64,000 bases of DNA from contig JBHEOA010000058.1 in the NCBI GenBank assembly GCA_046261835.1, positions 763 through 64,762 of the forward strand, given 5' to 3'. The notes beneath the pieces are model-generated. The model was not told the origin of the DNA, made no database searches, and saw nothing but the letters and a program-made list of their open reading frames with translations. Source of the DNA: Gemmatimonadota bacterium. GTDB taxonomy: Bacteria > Gemmatimonadota > Gemmatimonadetes > JACCXV01 > JAHWKZ01. Shown piece by piece: positions 1,628 through 34,754 of the stretch. Within the stretch, counting starts at the first letter, position 1. Every line of letters begins with the position of its first letter. The translations under genes were made by a program, and so were the position numbers.

Positions 1628-1661
1628 CGCGAAAGCCCTCGAGGCGAACTTCGGTCCGAGG

Positions 1662-2117
1662 TCAACCGCCGACGGTGAACTCTTTCGCGCCGACCGGCTC
1701 GTTGGCGAGGAGGACCTCGGCGCGGTAGCGGCCGGGAGCGAGCCCACCGGCCGGGGCGAGGTCGAACGTCACGACCTCCTTACCGTTGAGCGACAGGTAC
1801 CGCCCTTCCTCGCCGACGATCGAGCCGTCCTGGTAGGTGAAGCGGGCGACGACGTTCAGCTGCTCGACGGTTCCGTCGAGCTCCGCCGACAGGAACACCG
1901 AATCGCCCGGCTGGAACGTCGTCGCTTCCTGGGCGATACCCCGCCCCTCCTCGACCGCGGCTCCGATCCGAAGGTCACGCACCGCGACCTGTTGCTCGAC
2001 CGGTGCCTCGTCGCCGCCCGCCGGCATCGGAACGCTCACTTCGGTCTCTTCGCCGCCGCCGCCGCAAGCGAGCGCTAAGGCCAGGAGGACGAACGAAGCG
2101 ATCTCTGATCGACGCAT
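1662..2117 (-). CDS. Hypothetical lipoprotein
   Basis: Signal peptide with lipobox LALALAC; no recognised domain. Confidence 0.5.
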   Translation of the reverse strand: MRRSEIASFVLLALALACGGGGEETEVSVPMPAGGDEAPVEQQVAVRDLRIGAAVEEGRGIAQEATTFQPGDSVFLSAELDGTVEQLNVVARFTYQDGSIVGEEGRYLSLNGKEVVTFDLAPAGGLAPGRYRAEVLLANEPVGAKEFTVGG

Positions 2118-2127
2118 AGGGCCCCTC

Positions 2128-15486: not shown

Positions 15487-15604
15487 CGAGGGCGCAAGAT
15501 AGGCCCCTGGAACGCCTGTAGGCGAGATGCTCTAGTCAGACGGCGGACGGGGTTTCCCCAGTGGTTTGGCAAACCGGGCGTTCTTTCCCATTTTCGGCGC
15601 GGCG
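15487..15604. promoter_or_regulatory. Divergent promoter region between E1alpha operon (-) and kynA operon (+); near-palindrome GGTTTGGCAAACC
   Basis: 118-nt intergenic between two divergently oriented start codons; tggtttggcaaaccggg is a near-inverted repeat. Confidence 0.3.
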
Positions 15605-16417: not shown

Positions 16418-17656
16418 GTGGTGACCCGAGCGACGGCGGTGACGCCGGCGGACCTGTACGCGAGCCCCAACGCGATCGCGCCCGATTACTCGCGCTTCCG
16501 GGTCGCCGATCGCCTCCTGCTCTCCGGACACTCGCACCAGGCCTGGCCCGACGTGGGGTTCGAGGGGCAGGAACAAGCCTGGCTCGATGCCGCCGAGCAC
16601 GTCGACGAGAAGTGGGAGCACGCGTTCGCCCGGGCCGAGCGGGTCCGTGAGGGGTACCGCCGCGTGCTCGAAGACCCCGGCGGCGCGGTCGCGCTCGGCC
16701 CCGCAACCCACGATCTCCTGATCAAGTGGCTCTCCTTTCTCCCCCTCGCTGAGCGGCAGCGGATCGTCACGACGGACGGCGAGTTTCACGCCGCGCGGCG
16801 ACAGCTCGACCGGCTCGCCGAAAGCGGGATCGTCGAGATCGTCAAGGTCGGCGCGCATCCGGCGGAGTCGGTGGGCGAGCGGGTCGCGGCCGCCATCGAC
16901 GCCCGGACAGCCGCCGCGATCGTCTCGGCCGTGTTCTACGAGGACGCTCACATCGCGGGAGGCCTTACACAAGCGCTCGATGCATGCCGTCACCATGGCG
17001 CCGAGCTTCTGGTCGACGCGTACCACGCGCTCAACGTCGTGCCGTTCGGCCTTGCGTCGTGGGGCCTCGAAGAGGCGTGGGTCACCGGCGGCGGCTACAA
17101 GTACCTCGAGCTCGGCGAGGGGAACGCATTCCTCAGGATCCCTCCGGGACGCGACCCGCGTCCGATCGTGACCGGCTGGTTCGCCGAGTTCGACACGATG
17201 ACCGACCGGAAGGACCCCGGCCGCGTCGCATGGGGCGGGATCGCCTCCCGTTTCGCCAGCGCAACGTACGACCCGACCAGCCATTACCGCGCGAGCGAAG
17301 TGTTCGACTATTTCAGGGACCGCGGGCTCACACCCGAAATCTTGCGCGAGGTGTCCCAGCACCAGGTGCGGTACCTCGCCGAGCGGTTCGACGCACTGGA
17401 CGTCGACCCGACCGTGGTCGACCGCGATCGATCGGCGCCGCTCGAGCGAAGGGGCGGGTTCCTCGCGTTCCGCTCGCCTCGCGCCGGGGAGCTTCGGCAC
17501 GAGCTTTTCCGTCGCGGCGTATGGTGCGACCATCGCGGCGATGTCTTGCGCCTCGGACCTGCCCCCTATCTCTCGGATCGCCAGCTCGAAGATGCCGTAG
17601 CCGCGCTGCACGAAGCGGCAATGGCATTTATAGACCCGCCGCCTTCAAGGGCTTAG
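16418..17656 (+). CDS. kynU: Kynureninase (PLP-dependent)
   Basis: 412 aa; LLLSGHSHQAWPDVGF...LLVDAYHALNVVP...GGGYKYLELGEGNAF typical of bacterial KynU. Confidence 0.85.
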   Translation: MVTRATAVTPADLYASPNAIAPDYSRFRVADRLLLSGHSHQAWPDVGFEGQEQAWLDAAEHVDEKWEHAFARAERVREGYRRVLEDPGGAVALGPATHDLLIKWLSFLPLAERQRIVTTDGEFHAARRQLDRLAESGIVEIVKVGAHPAESVGERVAAAIDARTAAAIVSAVFYEDAHIAGGLTQALDACRHHGAELLVDAYHALNVVPFGLASWGLEEAWVTGGGYKYLELGEGNAFLRIPPGRDPRPIVTGWFAEFDTMTDRKDPGRVAWGGIASRFASATYDPTSHYRASEVFDYFRDRGLTPEILREVSQHQVRYLAERFDALDVDPTVVDRDRSAPLERRGGFLAFRSPRAGELRHELFRRGVWCDHRGDVLRLGPAPYLSDRQLEDAVAALHEAAMAFIDPPPSRA

Positions 17657-17682: not shown

Positions 17683-18330
17683 TTGTCCCCATCGACATTC
17701 AACGGAGGGCCGCTCGTGAGGGACATCGGGCGCGAGAGTGCGCGCACGGCCGTCGCCACAGCGACCCCGACGCTCGAGGAGACCGTCCGCGGGCGGCGCT
17801 CGATCCGGCGCTATTCGCCACGCGAGGTTCGCGAGGACGTCGTCATGGAGATCCTCGACCTCGCTCGCCACGCCCCCTCTTCGATGGACGGCCAGCCGTG
17901 CTGCTTCATCGTCGTCCGGGAACGGGCGATACTCGAACGGCTGGCGGATATCAAGAACGATCACTGCGCCCTCGACAAGAGAGATGCCTACCCGGCCCAC
18001 TTCGTGGCTTCTGCGCCCGTCGTCGTGGCGATCTGCGTCGAGCGAAAGCGAGCCCACGGTAGAGAACGCGAGAACGGTATCCTGGCCGCGGCGCATCTTC
18101 TCCTCGCCGCGCACGCACGCGGCCTCGGTGGCGTGTACATGACCGCCTACCAGGCCGACGACCCAGGCCTCGAGCGCGAGATCCGGGATCTCCTCGTCCT
18201 GCCACCGTCGGTTGATCCGGTAGCTCTCATACCGCTGGGCTTCCCTGCAGAGGAGCCGGCCCCCAAAGAGCTGCTGCCACTCGCGGAGCTGGTCCACCAC
18301 GAGTCTTACGGCAGTCGAGGGCGCGGATGA
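17683..18330 (+). CDS. Nitroreductase-family (NADH oxidase/flavin reductase-like) protein
   Basis: RRSIRRYSPREVREDVVMEILDLARHAPSSMDGQPCCFIVVRE...GGVYMTAYQ nitroreductase fold motifs. Stop overlaps the next start (ATGA at 18327). Confidence 0.7.
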   Translation: MSPSTFNGGPLVRDIGRESARTAVATATPTLEETVRGRRSIRRYSPREVREDVVMEILDLARHAPSSMDGQPCCFIVVRERAILERLADIKNDHCALDKRDAYPAHFVASAPVVVAICVERKRAHGRERENGILAAAHLLLAAHARGLGGVYMTAYQADDPGLEREIRDLLVLPPSVDPVALIPLGFPAEEPAPKELLPLAELVHHESYGSRGRG

Positions 18331-19525
18331 GCGACGCGTCTGTCTCGGGGATGACCGAGTGTCTCTCTACCGACCGCTTCGTCGGCGCCATCGACCCTCG
18401 ATGGGAGGCGTCGGAGAGTGTCGTCCTGCGGTACCGGAACGCCATGCGTCTGGAGTCGTCGGAGGAGGACGACGCACGCCTCAAGACGCTCTTCGAACGG
18501 ACCAGCATCCGCGAGGGCGTGCGTGTCGTCCCGCTATTCAGCTATCGCGACGTCGATGTGAGCGTCCTCGACGAGACATCTCTAATGCACACCCGCACGC
18601 TCAAGTCGATCGACGGATGCGTGACCACCGCCCACTGCCCCTTCGAGGATATCAACACGTCGTGTTCGAATCGGGCGGCAACACCGGTACGGCGTTGACG
18701 GCGTACGGCACCCGTGTCGGCCTCGAAACGTTCCTCTTCGTCCCCGCCGAAAACGTGGCGCTTCTTGACGGGCGGTTCTTCGACAGCGAAGCGGCGCACG
18801 TGATCGCCGTCGACCGCCCGCGGGACGTCAAGCCGGCAGCCGCGATCTTCGCCCCGCGTCACGGTCTGTCGCGGATTCCGGAGCTCGGATGGCGCATCCA
18901 GGCTTCGACCTTCGTGGGATGCTTTCTGCTCGAGCACCTTTTGGACCATGGTCCGTACGACGTTCTGGCGCAGTCGATCAGCGCGGCGTTCGGCCCGGTC
19001 GGCATCTATCGCGTCCTCGCGTCGCACCAGGAACGGCTGGACCGGCTCCCGTCGTTCCTCGGCGTCCAGCAGGCCGCCAACTGCCCGATGGTTCGCGCAT
19101 GGAAGAACGGCGGCGCGCTCAGCGCCGGCTCATCCAGCCCGCGACCGATCGAGTCCACGACGGAGCTTCTGGCGCGCGTCATGTACGATGGGGAGCCGGG
19201 GACGTACGGAACGCTGGAGCCGCTGCGCCGGATTCTGGTCGACACCGGGGGTGACCTCACCACCGTGGACCACGACGAGTTCCGCCGCGGCTTGTCGACC
19301 CTCGTAGATGGAAGGAGCGTCCTGGATCATCTCGCCGATCGTGACATCGAGATCACGACTCGCGGCGGCGAGATAATCGAGAAAGCCGGGCTCATGGCGC
19401 TAGTCGGCACATTGCGCGAGATCGAGAGTGGCGGGATCGCGCCCGGAAGGCGGGTTCTGGTCTGCATCACCGGCGGAACCGCGCAACCCGGCGGCCCGGT
19501 GAACGTCACGCGGTGGGCGGGATGA
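18327..19525 (+). CDS. Fold-type II PLP-dependent enzyme (threonine synthase/cysteate synthase-like) with an apparent frameshift near 18640-18660
   Basis: ORF 18327..18698 carries the Lys-loop region (LMHTRTLKSIDGC). ORF 18359..19525 in another frame continues with VVFESGGNTGTALTAYGTRVGLETFLFVPAEN...CITGG. The two frames meet at ccccttcgagg. Confidence 0.6.
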
Positions 19526-20442
19526 TCGTCCTGCGAGACGTGACGCTACGCGAGGGGCGCGACGTTCCCGGCGTCGGGTTTACCGTCGTCGCGCGGAGGG
19601 CGATCGTCCAGGCGCTGGCGCGCGCGGGCGTGCCGGAAGCCGAGGTCGTCGCCCCATACCGAGTCGCTGAGGACATCGCCGCAGCTCGGGAGCTCGGGCC
19701 GCCCGAGAGCTCGATCCGCATCTCGGGACTCGTCTACGCGAACCGTCCCGGCTGGCTGAGCGAGGTCGAGTCGGCCTGCGAGGTCCTCGATCGCGTCGAT
19801 CTCGTTATGCCGCTTTCTCCCCACCGCGAGCCACGGGAGGCCCGAGAGAAAGCGGACCGCCTCGTCGATGCGCTGCTCGCTTGCCGCGAGCTCCCTCTCG
19901 AGGTCGGTGCGGGCTTCCCGCACGCGACCCAGGTCGATCCCGATTCGGTGGTCGAGCTCTCGCGGCGGGCGGAAGAGGCCGGGGCGCGCCGGATCACGCT
20001 GTACGACACCAACGGCGGCTCGGAGCCCTTCGGCATCCGGCAGCTGACCGGTCGGGTCGTCGCCGCGGTTTCGGTCCCCGTCTTCTTCCACGCCCATAAC
20101 GACCTCGGCCTGGCCACCGCCAACGCGTGGGCGGCGGCGAGCGCCGGCGCGGCGGGCCTCGACGTCACGGTCAACGGCCTCGGCGATCGCGCCGGCAACG
20201 CCAGCCTGGAGCAGGCGGTCGTGCTCCTGCACTCGAGAAACATATCGACAGGCGTCGATCCTTCCGCGCTCGAGGAGCTCTCTCGTGTCGTCGCCGAGAT
20301 GAGCGGGGTCCCGGTTTCGCCGCTCGCCCCGATCGTAGGACGGCACGTGTTCGACCATGTCTCACCGGCGCACGCCGAGACCCCGACCGAGTTCGAGCCG
20401 TTCGACCCGGCCATGATCGGCGCCACGAGGCGAGTCCGATGA
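19513..20442 (+). CDS. HMGL-like (DRE-TIM) synthase/aldolase domain protein, short form without C-terminal regulatory domain
   Basis: LRDVTLREGRDVPGVGF...ITLYDTNGG...HAHNDLGLATANAWAAASAGAAGLDVTVNGLGDRAGNASLEQ are signature motifs of homocitrate/isopropylmalate-synthase-like enzymes. 13-nt overlap with the upstream gene. Stop overlaps the next start. Confidence 0.7.
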   Translation: MGGMIVLRDVTLREGRDVPGVGFTVVARRAIVQALARAGVPEAEVVAPYRVAEDIAAARELGPPESSIRISGLVYANRPGWLSEVESACEVLDRVDLVMPLSPHREPREAREKADRLVDALLACRELPLEVGAGFPHATQVDPDSVVELSRRAEEAGARRITLYDTNGGSEPFGIRQLTGRVVAAVSVPVFFHAHNDLGLATANAWAAASAGAAGLDVTVNGLGDRAGNASLEQAVVLLHSRNISTGVDPSALEELSRVVAEMSGVPVSPLAPIVGRHVFDHVSPAHAETPTEFEPFDPAMIGATRRVR

Positions 20443-21911
20443 ATGTCGTGATGTTCAATCCGGCGCCGAGAAGCGGCTTCCAGGCGTACCGGCGGGTCGA
20501 GCTCCCGCTGAGCGTCCTCTGCCCCGCGAGCCCGCTCGACCGCGATGGCTATCGGGTGACGATCATCGACCAGTTCGCCAACCCCCATTGGGAGCGCGAC
20601 TTCCGAGCGGCCCTGTCGGAGCGTCCGATCTGTCTCGGGATGACGAGCATGACCGGGCCCCAGATCCTCCGGGCGATCGAAGCCGCGCGCTTCGCCAAGG
20701 AGCTCCACCCGGGCCTGCCGGTAGTTTGGGGCGGGATCCACGCCAGCCTGCTGCCCGAACAGACCCTGAGCCACGATGCCGTCGACGTGGTTGTCGTCGG
20801 AGAGGGAGAGGCGACGTTCGCCGCGCTCGTCCAGGCGCTGCGGGACGGAACGCCGCTTTCGGACGTCGCCGGCATCATGTACAAGGAAGACGGAAAGGTC
20901 CGGTTCACCCCCGAACGGCCCTTCATCGACATCGACAAGGAGCCACCCCTCGCGTATCACCTTCTCGACATGGACGAGTACCGCCGGCGCCTCTTCGGTG
21001 TGGATCATGTGACGTTCAACTCGAGTCGCGGGTGCCTCTTCCGCTGCGCCTTTTGCTGGGATCCGGTCATGCACAAGCGGAAGTGGCGGGCGATGGAGCC
21101 GGAGACGGTCCTCGACCACCTCCAGCAGATCATCCGCGACTACGGGATCCGCGGGTTCCTCTTCACCGACGACCACTTCTTCATCGACATGAAGCGGGCC
21201 CGGGGGATCATCGAGGGACTGGTGCGCCTCAACCTCGACGTCACGATCAGCAAGCTCCAGGTCCGGGCCGATACGATTTGCAAGATGGATACCGAGTTCC
21301 TCGAGCTCATGGTGCGGGCGGGCGTCAAGCGGTTCACCGTGGGGATCGAGTCGGGAAGCCAGCGCGTCCTCGATCTGATCAAGAAGGACATGACGGTGGA
21401 GCAGGCGCTCGAGGCGAACCGGAAGCTCGCCCCCTACCCGATCATTCCCCTCTACCTCTTCATGATGGGGATGCCGACCGAGACGCCCGACGAGCTGAGG
21501 GAAAGCTTCGTGCTCGCCGATCGCATGATCGCCGACAATCCGAAGGCTGCGAAGACGTTCAACATCTACACGCCGTACCCGGGGACGGAGCTGTACGGGA
21601 TCGCGATCCAGCGCGGGCTCAAGGTTCCCGAGCAGCTCGAGGATTGGGCGCGGTTCAACTTCCGGAACGTCCAGAAGGACGCCGACTGGATCGAGCCCGA
21701 GACGAAGCGGTTGGTCGAGTACCTCGATTTCCCGCTCATGTTTCTGGGGGCGAACTTCGTCCACCCCTATCGCGCTACGAACCGTCTCGTCGTCTCACTC
21801 GGAAAGCTCTATGCGCCGGTCGCGCGCTACCGCGTCCAGAACATGGACGTCCGCTTCCCCATCGAGTCGGAGGTCGTCAAGCGGCTCGGGCTCTTCGCTC
21901 GCCAGGACTGA
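20439..21911 (+). CDS. B12-binding domain-containing (class B) radical SAM enzyme
   Basis: N-terminal cobalamin-binding region (ICLGMTSMTGPQI...VVWGGIHAS), then radical SAM CxxxCxxC SRGCLFRCAFCWDP. 491 aa; ATGA overlap with the upstream gene. Confidence 0.8.
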   Translation: MNVVMFNPAPRSGFQAYRRVELPLSVLCPASPLDRDGYRVTIIDQFANPHWERDFRAALSERPICLGMTSMTGPQILRAIEAARFAKELHPGLPVVWGGIHASLLPEQTLSHDAVDVVVVGEGEATFAALVQALRDGTPLSDVAGIMYKEDGKVRFTPERPFIDIDKEPPLAYHLLDMDEYRRRLFGVDHVTFNSSRGCLFRCAFCWDPVMHKRKWRAMEPETVLDHLQQIIRDYGIRGFLFTDDHFFIDMKRARGIIEGLVRLNLDVTISKLQVRADTICKMDTEFLELMVRAGVKRFTVGIESGSQRVLDLIKKDMTVEQALEANRKLAPYPIIPLYLFMMGMPTETPDELRESFVLADRMIADNPKAAKTFNIYTPYPGTELYGIAIQRGLKVPEQLEDWARFNFRNVQKDADWIEPETKRLVEYLDFPLMFLGANFVHPYRATNRLVVSLGKLYAPVARYRVQNMDVRFPIESEVVKRLGLFARQD

Positions 21912-21938
21912 TCCGACGGTACGCGACCCGATCCCGCG

Positions 21939-23128
21939 TTGAGCGCGCCGCCCCTCGTCGTCCTGGGCCTCGATTCGGGGGATCCCGATCTCCTCCTCCG
22001 TTGGGCCGGGGAGGGCCATCTCCCAGCGATCGCCTCCCTGCTCGAACGAGGCGCGGTCGGTCGCCTGACCGGCCCCGAGATGATCAGCGCGCACGGCGTC
22101 TGGATGTCGCTCTGGAGCGGCGTTTCCTTGAGCGAGCACGGCCACTATCTCCGGCGGCCGCTCGTCCCCGGGACGTACGAGACCCGGCGGCTCCACCCGT
22201 CCGAAGCGGGAGCGCCGCCGTTCTGGACCAGACTTCACGAACGACCGCCGGGTTCTCGCCGTCGACGCGCCCGAGACCTGGCCGCTCGCCGGGTTGACCG
22301 GATACCAGCTCACGCAGTGGGGTCATCACAACGCGGGCTTCCCGACCGCCAGCGAGCCGGCACATCTCGTTTCCGACGTTCGCCGTCGCTTCGGCCCGCC
22401 AATCTCCACCAACGAGAGTCGGCCGCTGGCTGCCCTCGCGATGGATCCATCGGCTCGAGGCCCAGCGACGCGGCAAAGGGACGGAATGGAGTCGCACGAT
22501 CGCCTTCCCGATACCGTCCTATTACACGGGTCTCTTCCGCGTCAATCTAGAGGGCCGTGAGCCCCAGGGAATCGTGACGCGGGGTCAGGAGTACGAGGTC
22601 GTCCTCTGGCGGCTCGAGGAGGACCTGCGAATGCTCACCGACGAAGAGAGCGGCGAGCCGGTCGTCGAGAGGGTGACGCGGGCTGTCGACCTTTTCGGAG
22701 GAGAGCCGCCGTTGAAATTGCCCGACCTGTTCGTCGAGTGGCGCGCCGACGGTCAGTTCATGGGTCGAGTCGTTCACCCGCGCGGAACTCTCACCCAACG
22801 GCGGTACGGCTCGCCACGCGGCAATCACCACTCCCGCGTGGGGCAGGTCATCGCGGGCGGCCCGGCCATCTCCGCCCGCGGCGGAATCGAAGACTTTTCG
22901 CCCCTCGATTTCGCGCCTTTGTTCCTGCAGATCATGGGAGAAGCCGTTCCCGCCGGCTCGTCGCGGCGTGCCATCGAGATTTTCCTCGGCCCGGGCCGTC
23001 GGTCCTCGGTTGAGCGCTCGGAAGCCGCGTCGGAGCGGCTCAGGACGGGTCCGGCACGCCGATCGGACGGCCCTGCTCGAGCGCCAGCAACAGGCGCTTC
23101 CGCCACAGACCTCCGCCGTAACCCGTGA
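21939..23128 (+). pseudogene. AP-superfamily type I phosphodiesterase/nucleotide pyrophosphatase-like gene split over three frames (2 frameshifts, ~22240 and ~22435); true 3' end uncertain
   Basis: Frame 0 LVVLGLDSGDPDLLLRW...FWTRL, then frame +1 DRRVLAVDAPETWPLAGLTGYQLTQWGHHNAGFP, then frame +2 WSRTIAFPIPSYYTGLFRVNLEGREPQGIVTRGQEYEVVLWRLEEDLRMLTDEESGEPVVERV...APLFLQIMGEAVP. All are contiguous family-typical segments. Confidence 0.55.
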
Positions 23129-25127: not shown

Positions 25128-26669
25128 TCAGCGTGATATCTCCCTCAGCGCTGCGCGGTCGACCTTGCCGAGGTGAGTCCGCGGCAGTACGTCGAGGAAG
25201 ACGACCTCGCGCGGATACTTGTAGGGCTCGAGCCTCTCGCGTACGAAAGCCTGGAGGTCGGCAGCGAGCTGCTCTCGGTCGGCAGCGCATCGGAGAACGA
25301 CACACGCCCGCGGCACCGTGAGCCCGGCTGCGTTGGTTACGCCCACGACGGCGACGTCGGCGACAACCGGATGAGCCAGCAAGCACCCCTCGACCTCCCC
25401 GGGCGAGAGCCATTTCCCGCCCACCTTGAGCATGTCGTCGCCGCGGCCGCTGTAGGTGAAGTAGCCGTCGGAGTCGCGCACGACCATGTCGCCGGAAATG
25501 TACCACTCGCCGCGAAACGCTTCGATCGTGCGCTCCATCCGCTGCCAGTAGCCTATCGCGCGCGAGCCGCCTTTGACCCACAGCCATCCGACCTCGCCGT
25601 CGGGCACGGGACGCCCCTCGTCGTCGCGCACCTCGACGCTGAAGTCGGGCACGACCTGGCCCAAGGTGCCGCGCACCGTGCCGGGGCGGTTGGAGAGGAA
25701 GATGTGCCACATCTCGGCGGTCCCCAGCCCGTCGAGGAGATCGATGCCGAAGGTATCGTCCCATCGGCGATGGAGCTCGACCGGCAAGGCCTCGCCGGCG
25801 CACGTCGCGAACCGCAGCGACGATAGGTCGTGCTGTCGCGCGGCGGGGTGATCGACCATCAGGTGCACCATCTTGGGAACGGTGACCAGCACCGTCGGCC
25901 GGAACCGATCGATCTTCTCGAAAACGACTTCCGCCGTCGCGGCTTCGGCAAAGAGGACGGCGGACCCGCCGACGGAGAACGGGAAGAACAGGTTCGACCC
26001 CATCGCGTATCCGAAATAGAGCTTGGGCACCGAGAGCGTGATGTCGTTCTCGGTGAGGTCGAGAACCCCCTGGCCGTAGCACACTGTCGTGTTGGCGTAG
26101 GATCGGTGGGGCTGCACCACCGCCTTGGGTCGCCCGGTGGTCCCGCCCGAAAAGAGCCATATCGCAGGATCGTCACGATGGGAGGGAAACGTCTCGAGGG
26201 TCGCCGACGCGGCTTCGAGAGAGCGGTCCGTTTCGAGCTCGCCCACGATGAGAAGGTTTTTCAGATGGCGCGCGGTAGTCCGGGCTTCCGTGAATGGTCC
26301 GGTCGCGTCGCGCGCCACGATCGCCGCCGCCGCCCGGGTGTAGTCGAGGAAGTAGTCGATGGCGTCGCGCGGCTGGGCCGGGTTGACCATGACCACCACG
26401 GCGCCAATCTTCAGCGCGCCGAAGAGAGCGGCGACGAACTCGGGCCCATCGGGAAGAGCGACGATCACCCGCTGCTCGGGCTCGACGCCCGCCTCCCGGA
26501 GCACGTTTCCGAACTGGTTCGCGAGCTCCTGGACCTCGGCATAGGTCCAGTCCCGGCGGTCGGTGCGGAGGGCGATGCGGTCGCCCCGCCCCTCGCGAAC
26601 CCGAGCGTCGAGGAGCCAGTCGGCGATGTTGAGGTGAGCGGGCGGCTCGAATCCCATGGTGGCGGCCAT
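25128..26669 (-). CDS. Benzoate-CoA ligase-family aryl-CoA ligase (probable 2-aminobenzoate-CoA ligase)
   Basis: AMP-binding motifs LFSGGTTGRPKAV, YGTAE-like GLGTAEMWHIF, GEWYISGDM, LPRTHLGKVDR. Family layout matches benzoate/4-HBA/2-aminobenzoate-CoA ligases. Context supports anthranilate as substrate. Confidence 0.75.
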   Translation of the reverse strand: MAATMGFEPPAHLNIADWLLDARVREGRGDRIALRTDRRDWTYAEVQELANQFGNVLREAGVEPEQRVIVALPDGPEFVAALFGALKIGAVVVMVNPAQPRDAIDYFLDYTRAAAAIVARDATGPFTEARTTARHLKNLLIVGELETDRSLEAASATLETFPSHRDDPAIWLFSGGTTGRPKAVVQPHRSYANTTVCYGQGVLDLTENDITLSVPKLYFGYAMGSNLFFPFSVGGSAVLFAEAATAEVVFEKIDRFRPTVLVTVPKMVHLMVDHPAARQHDLSSLRFATCAGEALPVELHRRWDDTFGIDLLDGLGTAEMWHIFLSNRPGTVRGTLGQVVPDFSVEVRDDEGRPVPDGEVGWLWVKGGSRAIGYWQRMERTIEAFRGEWYISGDMVVRDSDGYFTYSGRGDDMLKVGGKWLSPGEVEGCLLAHPVVADVAVVGVTNAAGLTVPRACVVLRCAADREQLAADLQAFVRERLEPYKYPREVVFLDVLPRTHLGKVDRAALREISR

Positions 26670-27441
26670 GATATCCGACGGCGCGAACGTGCGGCAATGG
26701 GCGGCCTCGACGTGGGAAGAGCTGAACGAGCTCGATCCCGGACGGCTGGTCGCGATCCTGCCGGTCGGCGCGATCGAGGCGCACGGACCGCACCTTCCAC
26801 TCGCCACCGATGTCGTGATCGCGGAGGCGATGGCGCGCCGTGGGGCGGAGGTCCTCGCCGCGCGGGGTATCGACGCGATCGTGCTGCCGACCCTGGCTTA
26901 CACGGTCGCCGGATTCGCCGCCGGCTTCCGCGGAACGATCTCGGTCCGACCGACGACCGTGATGTCGCTCGTGACCGACGTCGCCGACTCGCTAGCGGCT
27001 CAGGGATTCGCGGGTCTGGTCCTCGCCAACGTGCACTTCGATCCAGAGCACCTCGAAGCGATGCGCGAGACGGTCGAGGCCTCACCTCTTCCCATCGTCT
27101 TCCCCGACCTCACGCGGCGATCCTGGGCGACGCGCCTGGGAGAGGAGTTCCAGAGAGGCGCCTGCCACGCCGGTCAGTTCGAGGGTTCGGTCGTCCTCGC
27201 CGAACGGATGGAGTGGGTGCGGCAGGAGATTGCGCGCGAGCTCCCCGCCGTCGACATCTCGCTGTCGGCGGCGATTCAGCAGGGGAAACGGTCGTTCGAG
27301 GAGGCGGGGCTCGACCGAGCCTACTGCGGCAACCCGGCCGCCGCGACGGCGGACGAGGGACGCGAGACGATCGAGGTGCTGGCGACGATCCTGGCCGACG
27401 CCGTCGTCGAAGCGGGTCTGCCCGCGCCAACAAGGTCATGA
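26668..27441 (+). CDS. Creatininase-family amidohydrolase (start uncertain, possibly GTG ~26689)
   Basis: STWEELNEL...LVAILPVGAIEAHGPHLPLATDV creatininase-family signature. Divergent from the ligase with overlapping candidate starts. Confidence 0.65.
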   Translation: MISDGANVRQWAASTWEELNELDPGRLVAILPVGAIEAHGPHLPLATDVVIAEAMARRGAEVLAARGIDAIVLPTLAYTVAGFAAGFRGTISVRPTTVMSLVTDVADSLAAQGFAGLVLANVHFDPEHLEAMRETVEASPLPIVFPDLTRRSWATRLGEEFQRGACHAGQFEGSVVLAERMEWVRQEIARELPAVDISLSAAIQQGKRSFEEAGLDRAYCGNPAAATADEGRETIEVLATILADAVVEAGLPAPTRS

Positions 27442-28211
27442 ACGCCGCCCTCGCCGGTCGGGGCGCGGTCGTGACCGGTGGCGGGCGCGGGATCGGCGCC
27501 GCGATCGCCCGCGCGCTCGCCGCAGCTGGCGCACGAGTCGTCCTGGCCGCTCGAACGAAGACCGAGGTCGAAGCTGTCGCCGCCTCGATCCGCGACGCGG
27601 GCGGCGAGGCGTGGGCAGTCCCGTGCGACGTCACGACCGAGGCTGGCGTCGAGACCCTCGAGGCCGCCGCCACCGAACGGCTCGGTCAGGTCGACATCCT
27701 CGTCAACAACGCCGGGGCCGCGAACTCCGCGCCGGTCGCCCGGACTTCGCTCGCCGAATGGAATCGCCTGTTCGCTGTGAACGCGACGTCTACGTTTCTC
27801 TGCACGCGCGCTTTCCTCTCCGCCATGATGGAACGGAAACAGGGGCGCGTGGTCAACATCGCGTCCATGGCGGGTCTCGAGGGCGGCCCTTACATCGCGG
27901 CGTATGCGGCGGCCAAGCACGCCGTCATGGGCTTCACGCGGTCCGCTGCCGCCGAGGCCGCTCCGCACGGGGTGACGGTCAACGCGGTTTGCCCGGGCTA
28001 CGTCGATACGGATCTGACGCGGGAGTCGATTGCCCGGATCGTCGCGAGGACGGGTCGCACCGAATCCGAGGCGTTGGCATCGATGCTCACCAGCACTTCT
28101 CAGGATCGACTCATCGACCCCGCTGAGGTCGCCCGCGCGGTGGTACGGCTGTGCGAGGAGAACGTGAACGGACAGGAGATTGTGCTCGAAGGCAAGGGAG
28201 TACCCGCGTGA
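27438..28211 (+). CDS. SDR-family oxidoreductase (3-oxoacyl/3-hydroxyacyl reductase-like)
   Basis: GAVVTGGGRGIGAAIA Rossmann motif; NAG; catalytic YIAAYAAAKHAV. ATGA overlap with creatininase gene. Confidence 0.75.
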   Translation: MNAALAGRGAVVTGGGRGIGAAIARALAAAGARVVLAARTKTEVEAVAASIRDAGGEAWAVPCDVTTEAGVETLEAAATERLGQVDILVNNAGAANSAPVARTSLAEWNRLFAVNATSTFLCTRAFLSAMMERKQGRVVNIASMAGLEGGPYIAAYAAAKHAVMGFTRSAAAEAAPHGVTVNAVCPGYVDTDLTRESIARIVARTGRTESEALASMLTSTSQDRLIDPAEVARAVVRLCEENVNGQEIVLEGKGVPA

Positions 28212-28618
28212 CAGCGCGGCGCGGCCTCGATTTCGTGAACCCGGCCGAGCTGGGGGCGGGACGCGGGTTTTCGCACGGCGTCCTCGCGCCGGCCGGCGCG
28301 CGCGTGCTGTTCGTCGCCGGCCAGACCGCTCCCGGTCCCGAGGGATTCGTCGCGCAGTTCGCGGCCGCGCTCGATCGCGTGCTCGCAGTCGTTCGCGCGG
28401 CTGGCGGCGGCCCCAAAGACGTCGCGCGCATGACGGTCTGGGTGACCGATATGGCGGCGTACCGCGCGAGCCTCCAGCCGATCGGCGAGCAATGGCGCGA
28501 AAGGATGGGACGTCATTACCCCGCGATGGCGCTGGTCGAGGTCACGTCGCTCGTCGATCCGGCAGCCATTGTCGAGATCGAGGCGACCGCCGTCATCCCA
28601 CAGGAGAAAGGCCCATGA
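28207..28618 (+). CDS. RidA/YjgF-family protein
   Basis: VLFVAGQTA...MTVWVTDMAAY...LVEVTSLVDPAAIVEIEATAV; GTG start overlapping the SDR stop (GTGA). Confidence 0.65.
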
Positions 28619-29412
28619 TCGAGCCCCGATCGTTCCGGTACGAGCACGATCGCGAGAGCGGGACCGTGATGATCACGCTGGACCGCCCCCAGCGACTGAA
28701 CGCGCTCACGTTCGAGGTCTACGAGGACCTCCGGGACACGTTCCGCGCGCTGGTCGAGGAGACCGACGTCCAGTCCGTGGTAATCACGGGAGCCGGGCAG
28801 GCCTTTTGCTCGGGTGGGGACGTCGAGGAAATCATCGGCCAGCTCATCGGGCGAAATGAGGAAGAGTTGTACCTGTTCACACGTATGACGTGCGACCTGG
28901 TGCTGGCGATCCGCCGATGTCCCTATCCCGTGATCGCCGCGCTCAACGGCACCGTGGCCGGCGCCGGCGCGGTGATCGCCGTCGCCTGCGATATCCGGAT
29001 CGCCTCGGAGACTGCTCGAATCGCGTTCCTCTTCACCAAGGTCGGGCTCTCCGGAGCCGACATGGGGACGGCATGGCTCCTGCCGAGGATCGTCGGCCTC
29101 GGCAAGGCGACCGAGCTCCTCGTGACCGGGGAATTCATCGACGCCGACGAAGCACTCCGGATCGGCCTGTACAATCGGGTCGTCCCGCCGAAACTCCTGT
29201 TCAACGAGGCGTGTGGGTTCGCGCGGCTGTTCTCCCGCGGACCGTCGGCCTCGATCGCCGTGACCAAGCGGGCTCTGGACGATGAATGGACGATGAGCCT
29301 CGAAGAAGCGCTCGAGAATGAGGCTCGGGTTCAAGCTCAGATGATGACGCATCCCGATTTCCGCGAGGCGTACGACGCCTGGCGCGAGAAGCGCCCGCCC
29401 AAGTTCAGTTGA
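28615..29412 (+). CDS. Enoyl-CoA hydratase/isomerase (crotonase fold)
   Basis: VVITGAGQAFCSGGDV...IAALNGTVAGAGAVIAVACDIRIAS...GLYNRVV crotonase motifs; ATGA overlap upstream. Confidence 0.8.
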   Translation: MIEPRSFRYEHDRESGTVMITLDRPQRLNALTFEVYEDLRDTFRALVEETDVQSVVITGAGQAFCSGGDVEEIIGQLIGRNEEELYLFTRMTCDLVLAIRRCPYPVIAALNGTVAGAGAVIAVACDIRIASETARIAFLFTKVGLSGADMGTAWLLPRIVGLGKATELLVTGEFIDADEALRIGLYNRVVPPKLLFNEACGFARLFSRGPSASIAVTKRALDDEWTMSLEEALENEARVQAQMMTHPDFREAYDAWREKRPPKFS

Positions 29413-30596
29413 TCGATACGGAGACGGTCCGCGCGTTCCTCGACGAACGCCACGTCGCATGGGCCGAGCGTGTGGCAACGTTCGCTCGCGAGCGAATCGC
29501 GCCACTGCCCGACCCGCGCGATGACGCCGCGGCTCGCGATCAGGCGCGCGCGATCCTTTCGCTCTTCGGCGATACCGATCTTCACGCACCGATTCTGGAG
29601 ACCGACCTCCGCGCGATTGCGCTCGCGCGCGAGGCGCTCGCGTGGGCCTCACCCCTCGCCGACGCGGTCTATGCGCTCCAGGCGCTCGGGACGACGCCGA
29701 TCGTCCTCGCGGGGAGCGATGTCCTGCGAAGGCGGTGGCTGTCTGAGGTTTCCGCCGGCCGCGCGATGGCGGCCTTCGCCATGACCGAGCTCGAGGCGGG
29801 CTCCGACGTGGCCGCGATGGCGACGACCGCGCGCAAGGATGGGAGCGGGTGGGTCCTCGATGGAACCAAATCCTTCATCTCGAATGCCGGGATCGCCGAC
29901 TTCTATACCGTGTTCGCGACGACCGACACGTCCCGGGGCGCCAAAGCAATCGCCTGCTTCGTCATCCTGGCGGACACCGCGGGGCTCGAGTTCGTCGGCC
30001 CCCAGGTGCTTTCCGCCCCGCACCCCCTCGGAGAGATCCGCTTCGCGGACTGCCGGGTCGAGGACGACTGCCTCCTGGCCGGCCCCTACGACGGCTACAA
30101 GCTGGGCCTCGCGACGCTCGACCGTCTGCGCGCCACGGTCGCCGCCGCGGCGTGCGGCATGGCGGCGCGCGCGCTCGATGAGGCGACCGCGCACGCACGC
30201 GAGCGACATCAGTTCGGGAAGCCACTCGCCGACTTCCAGCTCGTCCAGGAGAAGCTCGCGCGGATGGCGACCGATCTCGCCGCGGCGCGCCTCCTCACGT
30301 ACCGCGCGGCATGGGCCAAGGACCGTGGCGCCGACCGGGTGACGATGGAGTCGGCGATGGCCAAGTCGTTCGCCACCGAGGCGGCCCAGCGAATCGTCGA
30401 CGACGCGGTCCAGATCCTGGGCGGGCGCGGCGTCCTCGCCGACCACCCCGTCGACCGGCTCTACCGTGCCGTCCGCGCGCTGCGGATCTACGAGGGGACG
30501 ACCGAGATCCAGCGACTCGTGATCGCGCGCCATCTGCTGAACCGCGCGCCGGCCGCCAACCCCGCGGCTTCTCCGCGGAACCCCGCCGCGCCGTGA
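29409..30596 (+). CDS. Acyl-CoA dehydrogenase
   Basis: [15 protein letters not shown]...[42 protein letters not shown]; TTG start overlapping the previous stop. Confidence 0.8.
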
Positions 30597-32848
30597 GGAT
30601 CGTCGCGGTCGGCGGCGGCCCGGCCGGCCTCTACCTCTCGATCCTTCTCAAGCGATCGGATCCTTCTCGCGATGTCGTCGTCCTCGAGCGGAATCCACCG
30701 GACGCGACGTACGGTTTCGGCGTCGTCTTTTCCGACGCCACGCTCGAGGCCCTCTCCGCCGCCGGACCGGAGACGTTCGATGACATCTCGGATCGGCTCT
30801 ACCACTGGGACGACATCGACGTCCACTACCAGGGAGAGATCCTGACCTCGACCGGCCACGGCTTCAGCGGTCTCGAGCGACGCGTCCTCCTCGAATCGCT
30901 CTCCGATCGCGCCCGTTCACTCGGAGTCGACCTCCGGGTCGGAGTCGATGTCGGTGACCCCGAAGCACTGCTCGGCGAGGCCGATCTCCTCGTGGGGGCC
31001 GACGGGGCGAACTCGATCGTTCGCGAGCGACGGGGGGAGGCATTCGAGCCGAGCGTCGACTTGCGCCCCAACCGATTCGTCTGGCTCGGCACTACCCGTC
31101 CATTCGAATCCTTCAAGTTCTACTTCAAGTGGGATGAGCATGGCCTTTGGCGCGTCCACGCTTACCGCTATGCCGAAGACGCCTCGACCTTCATCGTCGA
31201 AGCGACCGAGGAGACCATCCAGAAGGCCGGTCTAGAAGACGCCCCGGAGGCCGAAACGGTCGCCTTCTGCGAAGCCCTCTTCGCCGATGAGCTCGAGGGT
31301 CACCCCCTGATCCCCAACCGCTCGATCTGGCGCCGCTTCCCTACCATCCGCTGCGCGGCCTGGAGCGAGGGTCGCACCGTCCTGATCGGGGACGCGGCCC
31401 ATACGGCTCATTTCTCGGTCGGATCGGGCACCAAGTTGGCCATGGAAGACGCCATCGCGCTAGCGAACGCGCTCGATCGGGCGCCTGATCTTGCGACCGC
31501 GCTCGAGGGCTACGAGGCCGAGCGCCGGCCACAGGTGGAGTCGCTCCAGCGCGCGGCCCAGGCTTCACTCCAGTGGTTCGAGGGGACCGAGCGGTACTGG
31601 GGCACCGAGCCGATTCAGTTCGCCTTCAACCTCCTCACGCGATCGCTCCGTATCACACACCAGGACCTCAAGGAGCGCGATCCCTCGTTCACCGCTCGCG
31701 TGGATCGGTGGTTCGCCGAGCGCGCCTCTGAGCAGAGCGGGGTCGAGGTGCCGCTCGATCCAACCCCGCCACCCCTCTTCACGCCCTTTCGCCTGCGCGA
31801 GCTCGTCCTCCCCAACCGCGTCGTCGTCAGCGCGATGTGCCAGTACAGCGCTGAGGACGGCACGCCCAACGACTGGCACTTGGTCCACCTCGGGAGCCGC
31901 GCCATGGGTGGCGCGGGACTCGTGATCGCGGAGATGACCGACGTCTCGCGCGAGGCGCGCATCTCGCCCGGCTGTACGGGCCTCTACAAGGACGAGCACG
32001 CCGACGCCTGGCGGCGGATCGTCGATTTCGTTCACCAGAGCACCGAGGCGAAGATCGGAATCCAGCTCGGCCACGCCGGGCGCAAGGGGTCGACGCGCCT
32101 CGCATGGGATGGGATGGACGAGCCGCTCGAGGAAGGCGGATGGGAGATCGTGGCGCCGTCGCCGCTACCGTGGTACCCGCACAGCCCGGTTCCCAAAGAG
32201 ATGACGCGCGACGACATGGATCGCGTGAAGGAGGACTTCGCTCTCGCCGCAGGGATGACGCTCGCCGCTGGGTTCGATCTCCTGGAGGTCCACATGGCGC
32301 ACGGCTACCTCCTCGCCTCGTTCCTCTCGCCCGCGACCAACCTGAGGGAGGACGAGTACGGCGGATCGCTCGAGAACCGGCTCAGGTTCCCGCTCGAGGT
32401 TCTCGATGCAGCGCGATCGGTATGGCCCGAGGAGAAGCCGCTCTCGGTCCGTATCTCGGCGATCGACTGGGTCCCCGAGGGGCAGACGATCGAGGACTCG
32501 ATCGCTGTGGCGCGAGCGCTCGTCGAGCACGGCGCGGATCTGGTCGACGTTTCGGCCGGCCAGACGGTGCCGCACGCCAAGCCGCTCTACGGCCGCCAGT
32601 TCCAGACGCCGTTCGCCGATCGCATCCGCCACGAGGTCGGGATCGCGACGATGGCGGTCGGCAACATCTCGTCGTACATGGACGTCAACACGATTTTGGC
32701 CGCCGGCCGCGCCGACCTGTGCGCGATGGCGCGCGCGCATCTGTGGGACCCGTACTGGTCGCGGAACGCGGCGTGGCGGATGGGGTGGAAGCTCCCCTGG
32801 CCCAAGCCCTACGAGTCGCTCGACCGCTACAACCCGAGGTTCGAATGA
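30593..32848 (+). CDS. 2-aminobenzoyl-CoA monooxygenase/reductase-like fusion (FAD monooxygenase N-domain + Old-Yellow-Enzyme NADH:flavin oxidoreductase C-domain)
   Basis: N-terminus [14 protein letters not shown]...[10 protein letters not shown]...[24 protein letters not shown] (PHBH-type). C-terminus [21 protein letters not shown]...[30 protein letters not shown] (OYE). Matches the Azoarcus-type ACMR / salicylyl-CoA 5-hydroxylase layout. Confidence 0.8.
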
Positions 32849-33003
32849 CTGCTCAAGGATCGGGAAAACAGATCCCGCATGATCATTAGTCGATCACCGG
32901 GAGGTTGTTCCACATCCGGGTCTTGAGCTTCCCATGCCAAGCCGTGAATGAAGCGCGCCGGCCCGCTATCGCTCAGTCGGGACCAGCTCGCGCCGTCCCA
33001 CGC

Positions 33004-33540
33004 CTAGAGGTCTCCCAGCACCCTGCGGCCGTCGTTTCCACCGAAGAGCAGGACCCGTCCCCCCGAGGGATCCCAGACCATTTCATGACCGAAGGGCGCC
33101 GGGGGTCCCACGCCGGAATGCTCACGCCAGATGCTCCCATCCCACGTCCAGGTGTCGCCGAAGATCCTCCCGCCTACCCCGCCATTCACGAGCGTGACAC
33201 GTCGCACCGAATCGTACGTGCCTGCGGCCCAGAAGCGGCCTGTCGGGCCAGCCGTGTCAGCGAGGATCCATCGGTTCCCGTCCGTTTCCCACGTCGATCG
33301 CGGCAGCCCGCGACCCGCGCCTTCGCCTCCGAACACGACGAGGCGGCCGCGGCCGGAGTCGAAGGCGGTGGCAGCGGCGAACAGTGATGGAGGGCGAGTC
33401 GACTGCCCGCTGAGCGGAGCATGTTGGATCAGAAGTGACAGAGCCAAAGCGGATATGAGGAAACAGCTGCCGAGAGCGATGCGCGCATAGCGGAGCTCGG
33501 GAAGCGCTTCGAGGGTAGCGAGGTCGACCGAGCCGGACAA
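33004..33540 (-). CDS. Kelch-repeat (beta-propeller) secreted protein
   Basis: Repeated VVFGG..G....DTW.WDG..W Kelch-like motifs; N-terminal signal. Confidence 0.55.
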   Translation of the reverse strand: MSGSVDLATLEALPELRYARIALGSCFLISALALSLLIQHAPLSGQSTRPPSLFAAATAFDSGRGRLVVFGGEGAGRGLPRSTWETDGNRWILADTAGPTGRFWAAGTYDSVRRVTLVNGGVGGRIFGDTWTWDGSIWREHSGVGPPAPFGHEMVWDPSGGRVLLFGGNDGRRVLGDL

Positions 33541-33559
33541 AGCCTGGCCCGAAAAACCC

Positions 33560-34120
33560 GAACCCCATCCCCCTGAGATTCGGCTTCGCGCTCGCCGCGC
33601 TCTTCCTCGGCCGCCTGCTCGCGTGCGCGCGACGCAGCTTGCTCGGGCGAGTCGATGGAGTTGCCGCTGAACGATGGACCGGCGAGGTAGAGGTTGGGCG
33701 CCACGATCTCGCCCCGCGCGGCGCGTTCCTTCAGCTCGAGCTGGCCTGGGAACCCGAGCATGCCGCGCACGGTCGTGATGCCGTTGGCGACGTAGAGGAA
33801 GAGGACCGCTCGATGTGATCAGCCGGAGCGTCGGGCGGCGGGATGTGGCCGTGCATCTCGGCCAGGCCCGGCAAGAGGAAACGGCCGGCGCCGTCGATCA
33901 CGGTGGCGCCCTCGGGCACGGGAGTCGAAGCGGCAGGACCCACCGCAACGATCCTGTCGCCGCGCACGATCACGGTGTGGTCTGGCAGTACGTGCTCCTG
34001 ATCCATCGGAATGACGGAAGCATGGACGATCGCGACGATGGAGTCGGTCGGTGCGGGGGTCGGTTTGTGACCGCTCGAGCACGCGAGTGCGGCGGCGGCG
34101 ATGCTGGCGAGAAGGTTCAC
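33560..34120 (-). pseudogene. N-terminal remnant (~190 aa) of an amidohydrolase-family protein, frameshifted and truncated
   Basis: IVRGDRIVAVGP...ATVIDGAGRFLLPGLAEMHGHIP, then in a second frame GMLGFPGQLELKERAARGEIVAPNLYLAGPSFSGNS. No room for the ~250 aa catalytic remainder before the Kelch gene. Confidence 0.45.
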
Positions 34121-34158
34121 CGGTCAGTCATCCTTTCGAGTGTAGCGAAGTCGCGAGG

Positions 34159-34542
34159 TCACGTCCCAGGTGGCCCCCCATCGATCGAGCGTGCGGTTTC
34201 GACGACGAAGCCGTTCGCGCTGATCTCGCGATAGGCGGTGCGGAGCCGCACGGGTCCCATTCGCGTCTCGACGTCCGCGAACACCTCGAGATCCTTACCG
34301 CCGCTCACTCCTTCCCCCTCGGTAATCAGCAGGAGACCGTGATCGGAATCGACGAAGAGCCGTTGGACCGGGCCCTCGCGCGACAAGCGCATCTCGGCAT
34401 CGACGTCCCACGCCCCGACTAGAAACGAGAGCGCCTCGAGCTCGGGCTGACGACATGTGACGAAGGCGGCCTCTTGGGCGTGGGCGATGTCCGCGGCGAG
34501 CAGGACGAAGAGGACCAAAGCGAGAGAGAGGCGACAACCCAT
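34159..34542 (-). CDS. Small secreted protein of unknown function
   Basis: Signal peptide MGCRLSLALVLFVLLAADIAHAQEA; no recognised motif. Confidence 0.4.
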   Translation of the reverse strand: MGCRLSLALVLFVLLAADIAHAQEAAFVTCRQPELEALSFLVGAWDVDAEMRLSREGPVQRLFVDSDHGLLLITEGEGVSGGKDLEVFADVETRMGPVRLRTAYREISANGFVVETARSIDGGPPGT

Positions 34543-34754
34543 GACCCCAGAGACGAATTGCACCGCCCGACGTTCAAGAGCGCGATACGGAAGATGACCA
34601 GCGCGTAGGCGCGGGCGCCACCGGCGCGCGAGTTGCAGGTGAGCGACACGCTTCCTAGACTCGCAGCGATTCACGCGACCGGAGACCGACGATCCCCCAG
34701 ACGACACTCGACCTCTTCCCCGCGCATGAGGCGCCCCGGCGCGTCCTGCGCGAA

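Follow-up and report, generated by a model that had tools for sequence, protein, structure and literature searches.

A kynA/kynU-linked 2-aminobenzoyl-CoA gene cluster in Gemmatimonadota, with a creatininase-family hydrolase as proposed aryl-formamidase

Gene content of the cluster

The window analysed here is a stretch of 64,000 nucleotides from a Gemmatimonadota bacterium (contig JBHEOA010000058.1), and our subject is a cluster of seven genes at positions 25128-32848, together with the kynA and kynU-like genes that lie upstream of it. Genes were called from codon-position GC and open reading frame (ORF) analysis, the GC content being 65-69% over most of the window, and families were assigned by Pfam and NCBIfam profile scans. 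A ligase gene (LIG) on the reverse strand is divergent from a six-gene operon on the forward strand, which encodes, in this order, a creatininase-family protein (CRE, the CREATININASE-family gene), a short-chain dehydrogenase/reductase (SDR), a RidA-family protein, an enoyl-CoA hydratase (ECH), an acyl-CoA dehydrogenase (ACAD) and a monooxygenase/reductase fusion (FUS). The outer coordinates are the stop codons of the ligase (25128) and of the fusion gene (32848). The seven genes, their strands, these outer coordinates and the families are all as named in the original prediction, which had been made from the sequence alone; the kynA/kynU pair that it placed 8 kb upstream is also there, with 7.5 kb between the kynU-like gene and the 3' end of the ligase gene.

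15566-16390, forward strand: kynA, tryptophan 2,3-dioxygenase (Pfam Trp_dioxygenase, E 1.4e-60)
16418-17656, forward strand: kynU-like gene, divergent pyridoxal-phosphate (PLP) enzyme (Pfam KYNU_C, 33 bits; orthologue profile leading to 1qz9)
25128-26657, reverse strand: aryl-CoA ligase of 'group 2', predicted anthranilate-CoA ligase (AMP-binding; TIGR02262 461.4 bits, cutoff 375.25)
26658-26667, no strand: 10-nt spacer between the divergent ligase and CRE start codons (starts set by orthologue N-termini)
26668-27441, forward strand: CRE, creatininase-family metal hydrolase, proposed aryl-formamidase (PF02633 Creatininase, E 8.5e-52)
27438-28211, forward strand: SDR oxidoreductase of 3-hydroxyacyl/oxoacyl-CoA type, core lower-pathway gene (adh_short, E 3e-66)
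28208-28618, forward strand: RidA-family protein of the Arg-less 'PAM' subtype, predicted enamine/imine deaminase (PF01042 Ribonuc_L-PSP, E 1e-15)
28615-29412, forward strand: enoyl-CoA hydratase/crotonase-family protein of PRK08258 type (ECH_1; NF006107 359.6 bits, cutoff 330)
29409-30596, forward strand: acyl-CoA dehydrogenase (Acyl-CoA_dh_1/M/N domains)
30593-32848, forward strand: FAD monooxygenase/old-yellow-enzyme fusion, 751 aa (FAD_binding_3 and Oxidored_FMN; NF006101)

Each of the five operon junctions is a 4-nt overlap of start and stop codons, as had been predicted (ATGA at 27438, GTGA at 28208, ATGA at 28615, TTGA at 29409 and GTGA at 30593). We rejected these overlaps as a special feature of the locus: they are ordinary translational coupling at 67% GC, and orthologous operons often have short gaps instead. 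The SDR and RidA limits given above supersede the first long-ORF boundaries of 28126 and 28151. The ligase start (26657) and the CRE start (26668) leave start codons 10 nt apart, and the corresponding spacer is 8 nt in the related loci L006, L009, L017, L023, L030 and L037. A sigma-70-like -35/-10 pair for the ligase (TTGCCG, 18-nt spacer, TATCAT) lies inside the 5' end of CRE (26697-26668) and ends about 10 nt ahead of the ligase ATG. This layout suggests that the two genes may be read as leaderless or near-leaderless mRNAs from face-to-face embedded promoters. No RNA elements were found in an Rfam scan of 14-35 kb.

The fusion enzyme has the predicted architecture, an FAD aromatic monooxygenase in the N-terminal half and an old yellow enzyme (OYE)/FMN reductase in the C-terminal half of one ORF, although its length is 751 and not 752 aa. 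It matches NF006101/PRK08255, named 'bifunctional salicylyl-CoA 5-hydroxylase/oxidoreductase', with 1105.4 bits (cutoff 1078) over profile positions 1-748 of 768. The sequences GGGPAG, GADG and GDAAH in the FAD half, and MCQY and HMAHGY in the OYE half, which we take to be the cofactor and catalytic motifs of the two halves, read intact from the translation. A PDB search for a full-length structure of 2-aminobenzoyl-CoA monooxygenase/reductase (ACMR) found just separate OYE and VioD-like domains. The original prediction had raised the alternative of a grouping with salicylyl-CoA hydroxylases; in a neighbor-joining tree the window clade stands alone, apart from the proteobacterial and the actinobacterial clades, and its placement was set aside as uninformative on whether the enzyme is of anthranilate or salicylate type.

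The partner genes complete a familiar picture. Fusion, SDR, hydratase, acyl-CoA dehydrogenase, RidA and ligase form a standard set that is present in all six annotated or mapped clusters inspected, namely those of Ralstonia solanacearum, Ruegeria pomeroyi, Paracoccus denitrificans, a Burkholderia sp., the haloarchaeon Haladaptatus and Gemmatirosa, a cultured member of Gemmatimonadota whose unannotated record was mapped by tblastn. SDR and RidA are therefore core partners and not additions; of the three genes first described as atypical, CRE is a real extra, while these two are standard companions of the fusion in clusters that have no CRE. The SDR, found in all type-A clusters inspected, is 54% identical to that of the Ralstonia cluster, and the hydratase, above the cutoff of NF006107/PRK08258, is 47% identical to its Ralstonia orthologue. 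The acyl-CoA dehydrogenase has its best NCBIfam similarities, all below cutoff, to cyclohexane-1-carbonyl-CoA and glutaryl-CoA dehydrogenases. The RidA protein aligns with those of the Ralstonia, Ruegeria, Paracoccus, Burkholderia, Haladaptatus, Arthrobacter and Rhodococcus clusters; at the key position, which we take to be that of the active-site Arg of canonical RidA, 9 of 10 aligned fusion-cluster proteins carry Met and the Haladaptatus protein Leu, and the canonical RidA family TIGR00004 gives 32.9 bits against a cutoff of 106. Family matches and gene set together back the assignment to the aerobic 2-aminobenzoyl-CoA type.

Compared with the Azoarcus evansii abm-type cluster and those of Ralstonia, Ruegeria, Paracoccus and Burkholderia, the fusion, ligase, SDR, PRK08258-type hydratase, dehydrogenase and Arg-less RidA are shared and orthologous; identity to the proteobacterial counterparts is 35% for the ligase and 38-54% for the five other proteins. 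The Azoarcus cluster (Schuhle et al. 2001) reportedly encodes a MarR-like regulator and an ABC binding protein along with three enzymes of beta-oxidation; it also has a 'putative translation inhibitor protein', a name that we take to denote the RidA family. The window cluster departs from this type in several respects: a MarR regulator, a hot-dog thioesterase and an ABC transporter are absent from 25128-32848 and from the conserved unit described below; its ligase belongs to a different group (28-36% identity to the classical one) and is divergently transcribed; and it adds the creatininase-family gene, with kynA/kynU within or beside the unit in most relatives. The second, actinobacterial type of cluster (on plasmids in Arthrobacter pAL1 and Rhodococcus BG43; also the Streptomyces SdgC type) has the same fusion family (52-54%), an aryl-CoA ligase and the same RidA subtype, but thioesterases, a cupin and a protein of the fumarylacetoacetate-hydrolase (FAH) family stand in place of SDR, hydratase and dehydrogenase (L085 4481-11394, L086 3972-11376). 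This implies that actinobacterial clusters release a hydroxylated aromatic acid for dioxygenolytic cleavage and do not process it in a beta-oxidation-like manner; the window cluster, unlike them, is of the beta-oxidation type.

Conservation of the unit and its linkage to kynA and kynU

To define the unit, one genome per species was scanned with the fusion protein, which gave 80 loci, nearly all from Gemmatimonadota metagenome-assembled genomes (MAGs) and with 65-79% identity, onto which the window proteins were mapped by tblastn. The arrangement LIG(-)|CRE-SDR-RidA-ECH-ACAD-FUS is exact in 49 of the 50 loci that extend 5.6 kb or more upstream of the fusion gene, and a repetition on this scale argues that it is not due to chance. 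Of the 80 loci, 60 have a kynA-kynU pair; it comes straight after the fusion gene in 45 of them and lies upstream of the ligase in the other 15. The pair is present in 31 of the 31 loci with adequate flanks on both sides; the link to kynA/kynU that the original prediction had drawn from the window is thus upheld by the relatives. All-against-all ORF clustering across the loci returned nine conserved families only, the flanks consisting of housekeeping genes.

The kynA product is above cutoff for Pfam Trp_dioxygenase and aligns with TIGR03036 over its full length at E 5.5e-87, but below the equivalog cutoff (291.5 bits against 390.7); its orthologues directly flank the cluster in most relatives. 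The neighbouring kynU-like protein is much further from its reference family. KYNU_C is its single Pfam match, and it has no NCBIfam match and no PDB match by single-sequence phmmer. A profile built from 26 orthologues, however, finds Pseudomonas fluorescens kynureninase (1qz9) as its best match, at E 3e-21 versus 1e-7 for cysteine desulfurases, and a YKY motif containing the PLP lysine is invariant among the orthologues. The gene is always beside kynA in the mapped relatives, and a 664-aa protein joining tryptophan 2,3-dioxygenase (TDO) and KynU in one chain exists (P0301, L095 9222-11200). It belongs to a very divergent kynureninase-like family spread over Ignavibacteriales, Arenicellales and Gemmatimonadales, always beside TDO.

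This conservation strongly supports a flow from tryptophan through anthranilate to 2-aminobenzoyl-CoA, and it also bears on the substrate of the fusion enzyme. Were the cluster to degrade salicylate or another benzoate derivative through salicylyl-CoA 5-hydroxylation, the name of NF006101 would fit, as would the ligase, which scores as well against benzoate-CoA ligases as against an anthranilate-CoA ligase. The near-universal adjacency of kynA/kynU runs counter to such a route, as does the RidA-type deaminase, which is sensible for an amino substrate only; the cluster is also without the gentisate dioxygenase, cupin, FAH or thioesterase set of the actinobacterial clusters. We consider the salicylate route very improbable, and gene context (kynA/kynU and RidA) favours an amino substrate over salicylyl-CoA.

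Among the related loci, the window falls with those that have kynAU upstream of the ligase, but here 7.5 kb of unrelated genes are inserted between the two. Most of this interval is a block (17683-23128) on the same strand as kynU, with tiny gaps or overlaps, that encodes a nitroreductase, a PALP-like, an HMGL-like and a B12-binding radical SAM protein and two Pfam-less ORFs; ada follows on the opposite strand. The block is absent from all 80 related loci and is therefore an insertion specific to the window genome, possibly co-transcribed with kynAU. On the other side, the stretch from the fusion gene to recQ (32850-34750) holds no well-supported gene; its weak ORFs, with sub-threshold matches to Kelch, amidohydrolase fragments and the like, are possibly gene remnants. 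A 65% identical fusion gene with no partner genes nearby occurs on two MAG contigs labelled Planctomycetota (L078 4362-6581, L080 5545-7785), the neighbours including an M48 peptidase, an outer-membrane beta-barrel protein and a 421-aa Pfam-less ORF.

The creatininase-family gene and its partner ligase

CRE is a clear member of PF02633, and its fold and metal site are clear from sequence. It scores far below the equivalog cutoffs of creatininase proper (EC 3.5.2.10; TIGR04448 81.7 bits, cutoff 235) and of the mycofactocin peptidase MftE (TIGR03964 86.3 bits, cutoff 172), and no mycofactocin (mft) family appears among the Pfam or NCBIfam matches of the genes at about 14-38 kb. Solved structures are distant, with best PDB E-values of about 1e-11. 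Residues E37, H39, D48, H123, D125, H167 and E172 are invariant in 38 orthologues, and we take them to align with the metal ligands and the catalytic histidine of Pseudomonas putida creatininase; because these putative metal and catalytic residues are invariant, CRE is probably an active enzyme. Homologues on plasmids found by tblastn (haloarchaea, Listeria and Alicyclobacillus, about 30% identical) lie in unrelated contexts and were uninformative.

CRE homologues were collected by a HMMER search of 1.84 billion representatives, which gave 127 clusters at E <= 1e-30, and by a second search seeded from a distant member. Outside the Gemmatimonadota unit, the following gene orders were found:

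Krumholzibacteria (L098): FUS-SDR-ECH-ACAD-RidA-LIG-CRE
Pendulispora rubella (L097): RidA-MarR-ECH-ACAD-OYE-LIG-CRE
Minicystis rosea (L096): LIG-CRE alone
L099 and L100: SDR-RidA-ECH-ACAD-LIG-CRE
L101: kynU/kynA divergent from SDR-RidA-ECH-ACAD-LIG-CRE-FUS
L102 and L103: kynA-kynU-FUS-SDR-ECH-(ACAD)-RidA-LIG-CRE

CRE is thus a real extra gene that recurs in Krumholzibacteria, Myxococcota and other lineages and is not unique to the window genome. It adjoins the ligase wherever it was examined (Gemmatimonadota, Krumholzibacteria, Pendulispora, Minicystis, L094 and L099-L103), and in seven of the nine contexts the two genes overlap by 4-10 nt. In Gemmatimonadota the ligase is inverted relative to CRE, with start codons 8-10 nt apart. 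In Pendulispora rubella, the position of the fusion enzyme (L097 6889-8307) is taken on record by a 472-aa protein with just the OYE (Oxidored_FMN) domain, the monooxygenase half being missing or encoded elsewhere.

The ligase is above the family cutoff for benzoate-CoA ligases (TIGR02262), and its neighbours in the PDB are enzymes of that kind together with 4wv3, an anthranilate-CoA ligase. In a pairwise identity matrix, on which our grouping is based, the ligases of CRE clusters form one group, with 38-43% identity between its two clades and 59-71% inside each, while those of clusters lacking CRE form a second (42-79%) that includes the Arthrobacter ligase, verified experimentally as an anthranilate-CoA ligase (PMC3534580). 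Between the groups identity is only 28-36%. The window ligase shares 38-43% with other CRE-cluster ligases and 33-36% with the classical anthranilate-CoA ligases, which places it outside the classical group 1, and CRE was never seen with the classical type in the clusters examined. The invariant adjacency and the separate ligase group together define CRE and the group-2 ligase as a conserved two-gene module.

This strict co-variation of CRE with ligase type, and with no lower-pathway gene, bears directly on what CRE might do. The original prediction had suggested that the creatininase may open a lactam or amide ring after the ACMR step; known chemistry offers no such substrate, since the ACMR product is a carbocyclic enaminone and not a lactam. 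A related possibility is that CRE acts on a CoA ester of the lower pathway, by deaminating the enaminone or by hydrolysing a C-C bond of the 2,5-dioxocyclohexane ring. CRE is, after all, the first gene of the operon and translationally coupled to SDR; CRE-SDR fusion proteins (P0125/P0511, 515 aa, two sequences from two contigs) and a CRE-RidA fusion (P0127, 422 aa) exist; several CRE clusters have no kyn genes nearby; and there is an NCBIfam match to IolN, annotated as a hydrolase of the cyclic ketone 3-dehydro-scyllo-inosose, although at 30 bits against a cutoff of 245 this match is weak. Orthologous SDR, RidA, hydratase and dehydrogenase are, however, retained in Ralstonia, Ruegeria, Paracoccus, Burkholderia, Gemmatirosa and Haladaptatus, all of which lack CRE. 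With all five lower-pathway genes kept in clusters of this kind, the core chemistry appears not to need CRE, and Minicystis carries the LIG-CRE pair alone. We regard a post-ACMR role for CRE as unlikely.

A different role is suggested by gene position. CRE sits where a hot-dog thioesterase (TE) follows the ligase in Ralstonia (LIG-TE) and Rhodococcus (LIG-TE-FUS, compared with LIG-CRE-FUS in L101), and such thioesterases, present in Ralstonia, Paracoccus and Burkholderia, occur in no CRE cluster examined; CRE could accordingly replace the small thioesterase in proofreading, or in the rescue of CoA from dead-end esters such as 5-hydroxyanthraniloyl-CoA. The exchange is not a regular one, as Ruegeria has neither protein and Haladaptatus has no annotated thioesterase, only a MaoC-type hot-dog protein, and few independent lineages were sampled. 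Moreover, we know of no creatininase-family enzyme that hydrolyses a thioester. Such a substitution seems to us improbable.

A candidate formamidase and the proposed route

The route from tryptophan to anthranilate requires a formamidase, and a canonical KynB was not found near the operons, with one possible exception among about 80 loci (L076), so that a deformylating gene is missing from an otherwise complete set. A cyclase-type KynB is not among the conserved families obtained by ORF clustering of the 80 loci, and the gaps between fusion gene and kynA in L047, L048 and L061 hold only ankyrin-repeat or unannotatable ORFs and no kynB. A scan for the motif HxGTHxDxPxH over 1.49 Mb of the window and related loci gave one match, in L076, and none in the window. 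In the colinear operons of L102 and L103, CRE is the sole hydrolase. Ruegeria has a different hydrolase (alpha/beta, HSL family) beside TDO, next to its fusion-gene cluster, showing that lineage-specific hydrolases do accompany TDO in this setting.

A precedent for formamidase activity exists in the family of CRE. BrbF (SMc02977 of Sinorhizobium meliloti; cf. archaeal ArfB), owes its annotation as a creatinine amidohydrolase to homology with P. putida creatininase, but experiments have shown it to be a formamidase. It takes the N-formyl group off an aromatic amine, ortho to a carbonyl, although its substrate is a pyrimidine nucleotide in riboflavin biosynthesis (PMC9478397). CRE has no special closeness to BrbF, the plasmid search having returned no rhizobial matches. 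By analogy, CRE may be an aryl-formamidase that replaces the absent KynB and delivers free anthranilate to the group-2 ligase, a role to which we give a little less than even odds. The likeness to KynB (PF04199) and the alpha/beta formamidases would be one of function, with the same proposed reaction on an N-formyl aromatic amine in the same TDO/kynureninase context; CRE differs from them in fold and family (PF02633) and in its place beside a CoA ligase, and would work like KynB without being a member of its family.

The position of CRE beside the ligase, and not between kynA and kynU, fits N-formylanthranilate as its substrate, an established bacterial intermediate formed in the degradation of indole and of 3-hydroxy-4-quinolone (PMC6221969, PMC3167764). 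The same background invites the reading that CRE is an amidase for other N-acyl-anthranilates, arising from quinolone, quinaldine or indole breakdown and feeding the ligase independently of tryptophan. It would account for the strict adjacency of CRE to the ligase and for LIG-CRE pairs without kyn genes, and there are parallels in an alpha/beta hydrolase of the Rhodococcus BG43 aqdC1 cluster, which adjoins the ligase/fusion cluster, and in the quinaldine genes near the ligase/fusion cluster on Arthrobacter pAL1. Yet none of the CRE clusters examined has quinolone or indole oxygenase genes nearby, and of upstream-pathway genes only kynA/kynU recur; we hold this reading to be rather improbable.

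N-formylanthranilate could also arise from tryptophan itself. KEGG lists kynureninase as acting on N-formylkynurenine, with formylanthranilate as product. A bolder form of the formamidase proposal is that CRE represents a third, non-homologous kind of aryl-formamidase in a kynurenine branch of changed order: the kynureninase-like enzyme would act on N-formylkynurenine itself, splitting it into N-formylanthranilate and alanine, and CRE would deformylate N-formylanthranilate just before, or in complex with, the dedicated group-2 ligase. Such an order would turn three tight couplings, the adjacency and fusion of TDO and KynU, the fusion of CRE and KynU and the adjacency of CRE and ligase, into consecutive steps. 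The CRE-KynU fusion (P0200, 658 aa) has both domains in one frame with no intervening stop; we had considered it decisive and downgraded it, for reasons given below. We judge the changed order to be doubtful.

Several observations weigh against CRE as the formamidase of a tryptophan route. P0200 was seen only once, on a contig that is prone to errors and has many frameshifts, and the CRE-SDR and CRE-RidA fusions mean that fusion proteins do not single out the kyn branch. L076 carries, alongside CRE, a PF04199 KynB-like gene (1314-2159, reverse strand) 2.4 kb from the ligase and on the same strand. Kyn genes are not within 10 kb in the CRE clusters L097-L100 and the Minicystis LIG-CRE pair. The position of CRE in the slot of the hot-dog thioesterase suggests another possible role, and the isolated clade of the fusion enzyme leaves the tree silent on 2-aminobenzoyl-CoA versus salicylyl-CoA preference. 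The role proposed for CRE is argued from gene context and analogy only. In L076, a DinB-like gene and a 541-aa Pfam-less ORF separate the PF04199 gene from the ligase.

Taken globally, we read the locus as a complete route from tryptophan to aliphatic CoA esters via 2-aminobenzoyl-CoA, with CRE as an accessory enzyme and candidate aryl-formamidase, and put the probability of this reading at roughly 0.55. Mechanistically, KynA would open the indole ring to give N-formylkynurenine, and the divergent kynureninase-like enzyme would remove alanine; deformylation, by CRE acting on N-formylanthranilate or N-formylkynurenine, would yield anthranilate, which the group-2 aryl-CoA ligase would convert to 2-aminobenzoyl-CoA. 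The FAD/OYE fusion would then hydroxylate and reduce the ring to 2-amino-5-oxocyclohex-1-ene-1-carbonyl-CoA, the known product of ACMR (PMC4539516). In turn, the Arg-less RidA protein would hydrolyse the imine tautomer of this product to a dioxo ester, removing the amino group, and SDR, the crotonase-family protein and the acyl-CoA dehydrogenase would carry out beta-oxidation-like ring opening and shortening. The comparisons establish the gene identities, the layout of the operon, its conservation, its tie to kynA/kynU and the standing of SDR, RidA, hydratase and dehydrogenase as usual companions of the fusion gene, while the substrates and the succession of the lower steps are inferred; in anthranilate-grown Arthrobacter, CoA esters matching hydroxyanthraniloyl-CoA and cyclohexanedione-carboxyl-CoA (C7H8O4) have been observed (PMC3534580).

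The assignment to this pathway has good support, and the pathway itself is of a known kind; its real accessory is CRE, coupled to a distinct ligase type and much more widespread than the window alone could show. No paper linking a creatininase-family protein to the 2-aminobenzoyl-CoA pathway was found in the literature searched. Both the steps after ACMR and the feed-in from tryptophan are poorly defined, to the point that the pathway does not feature in GapMind, 'due to a lack of knowledge' (PMC9007349). The locus and its relatives present it as a compact, widely conserved nine-gene unit, and several uncultured soil phyla as well as the cultured myxobacteria Pendulispora and Minicystis have the pairing of a distinct ligase and a creatininase-family hydrolase. 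If CRE is indeed a formamidase, a missing gene of tryptophan catabolism would be filled for abundant soil bacteria, and a new activity would be added to a family whose members are routinely given the wrong annotation of 'creatinine amidohydrolase'.

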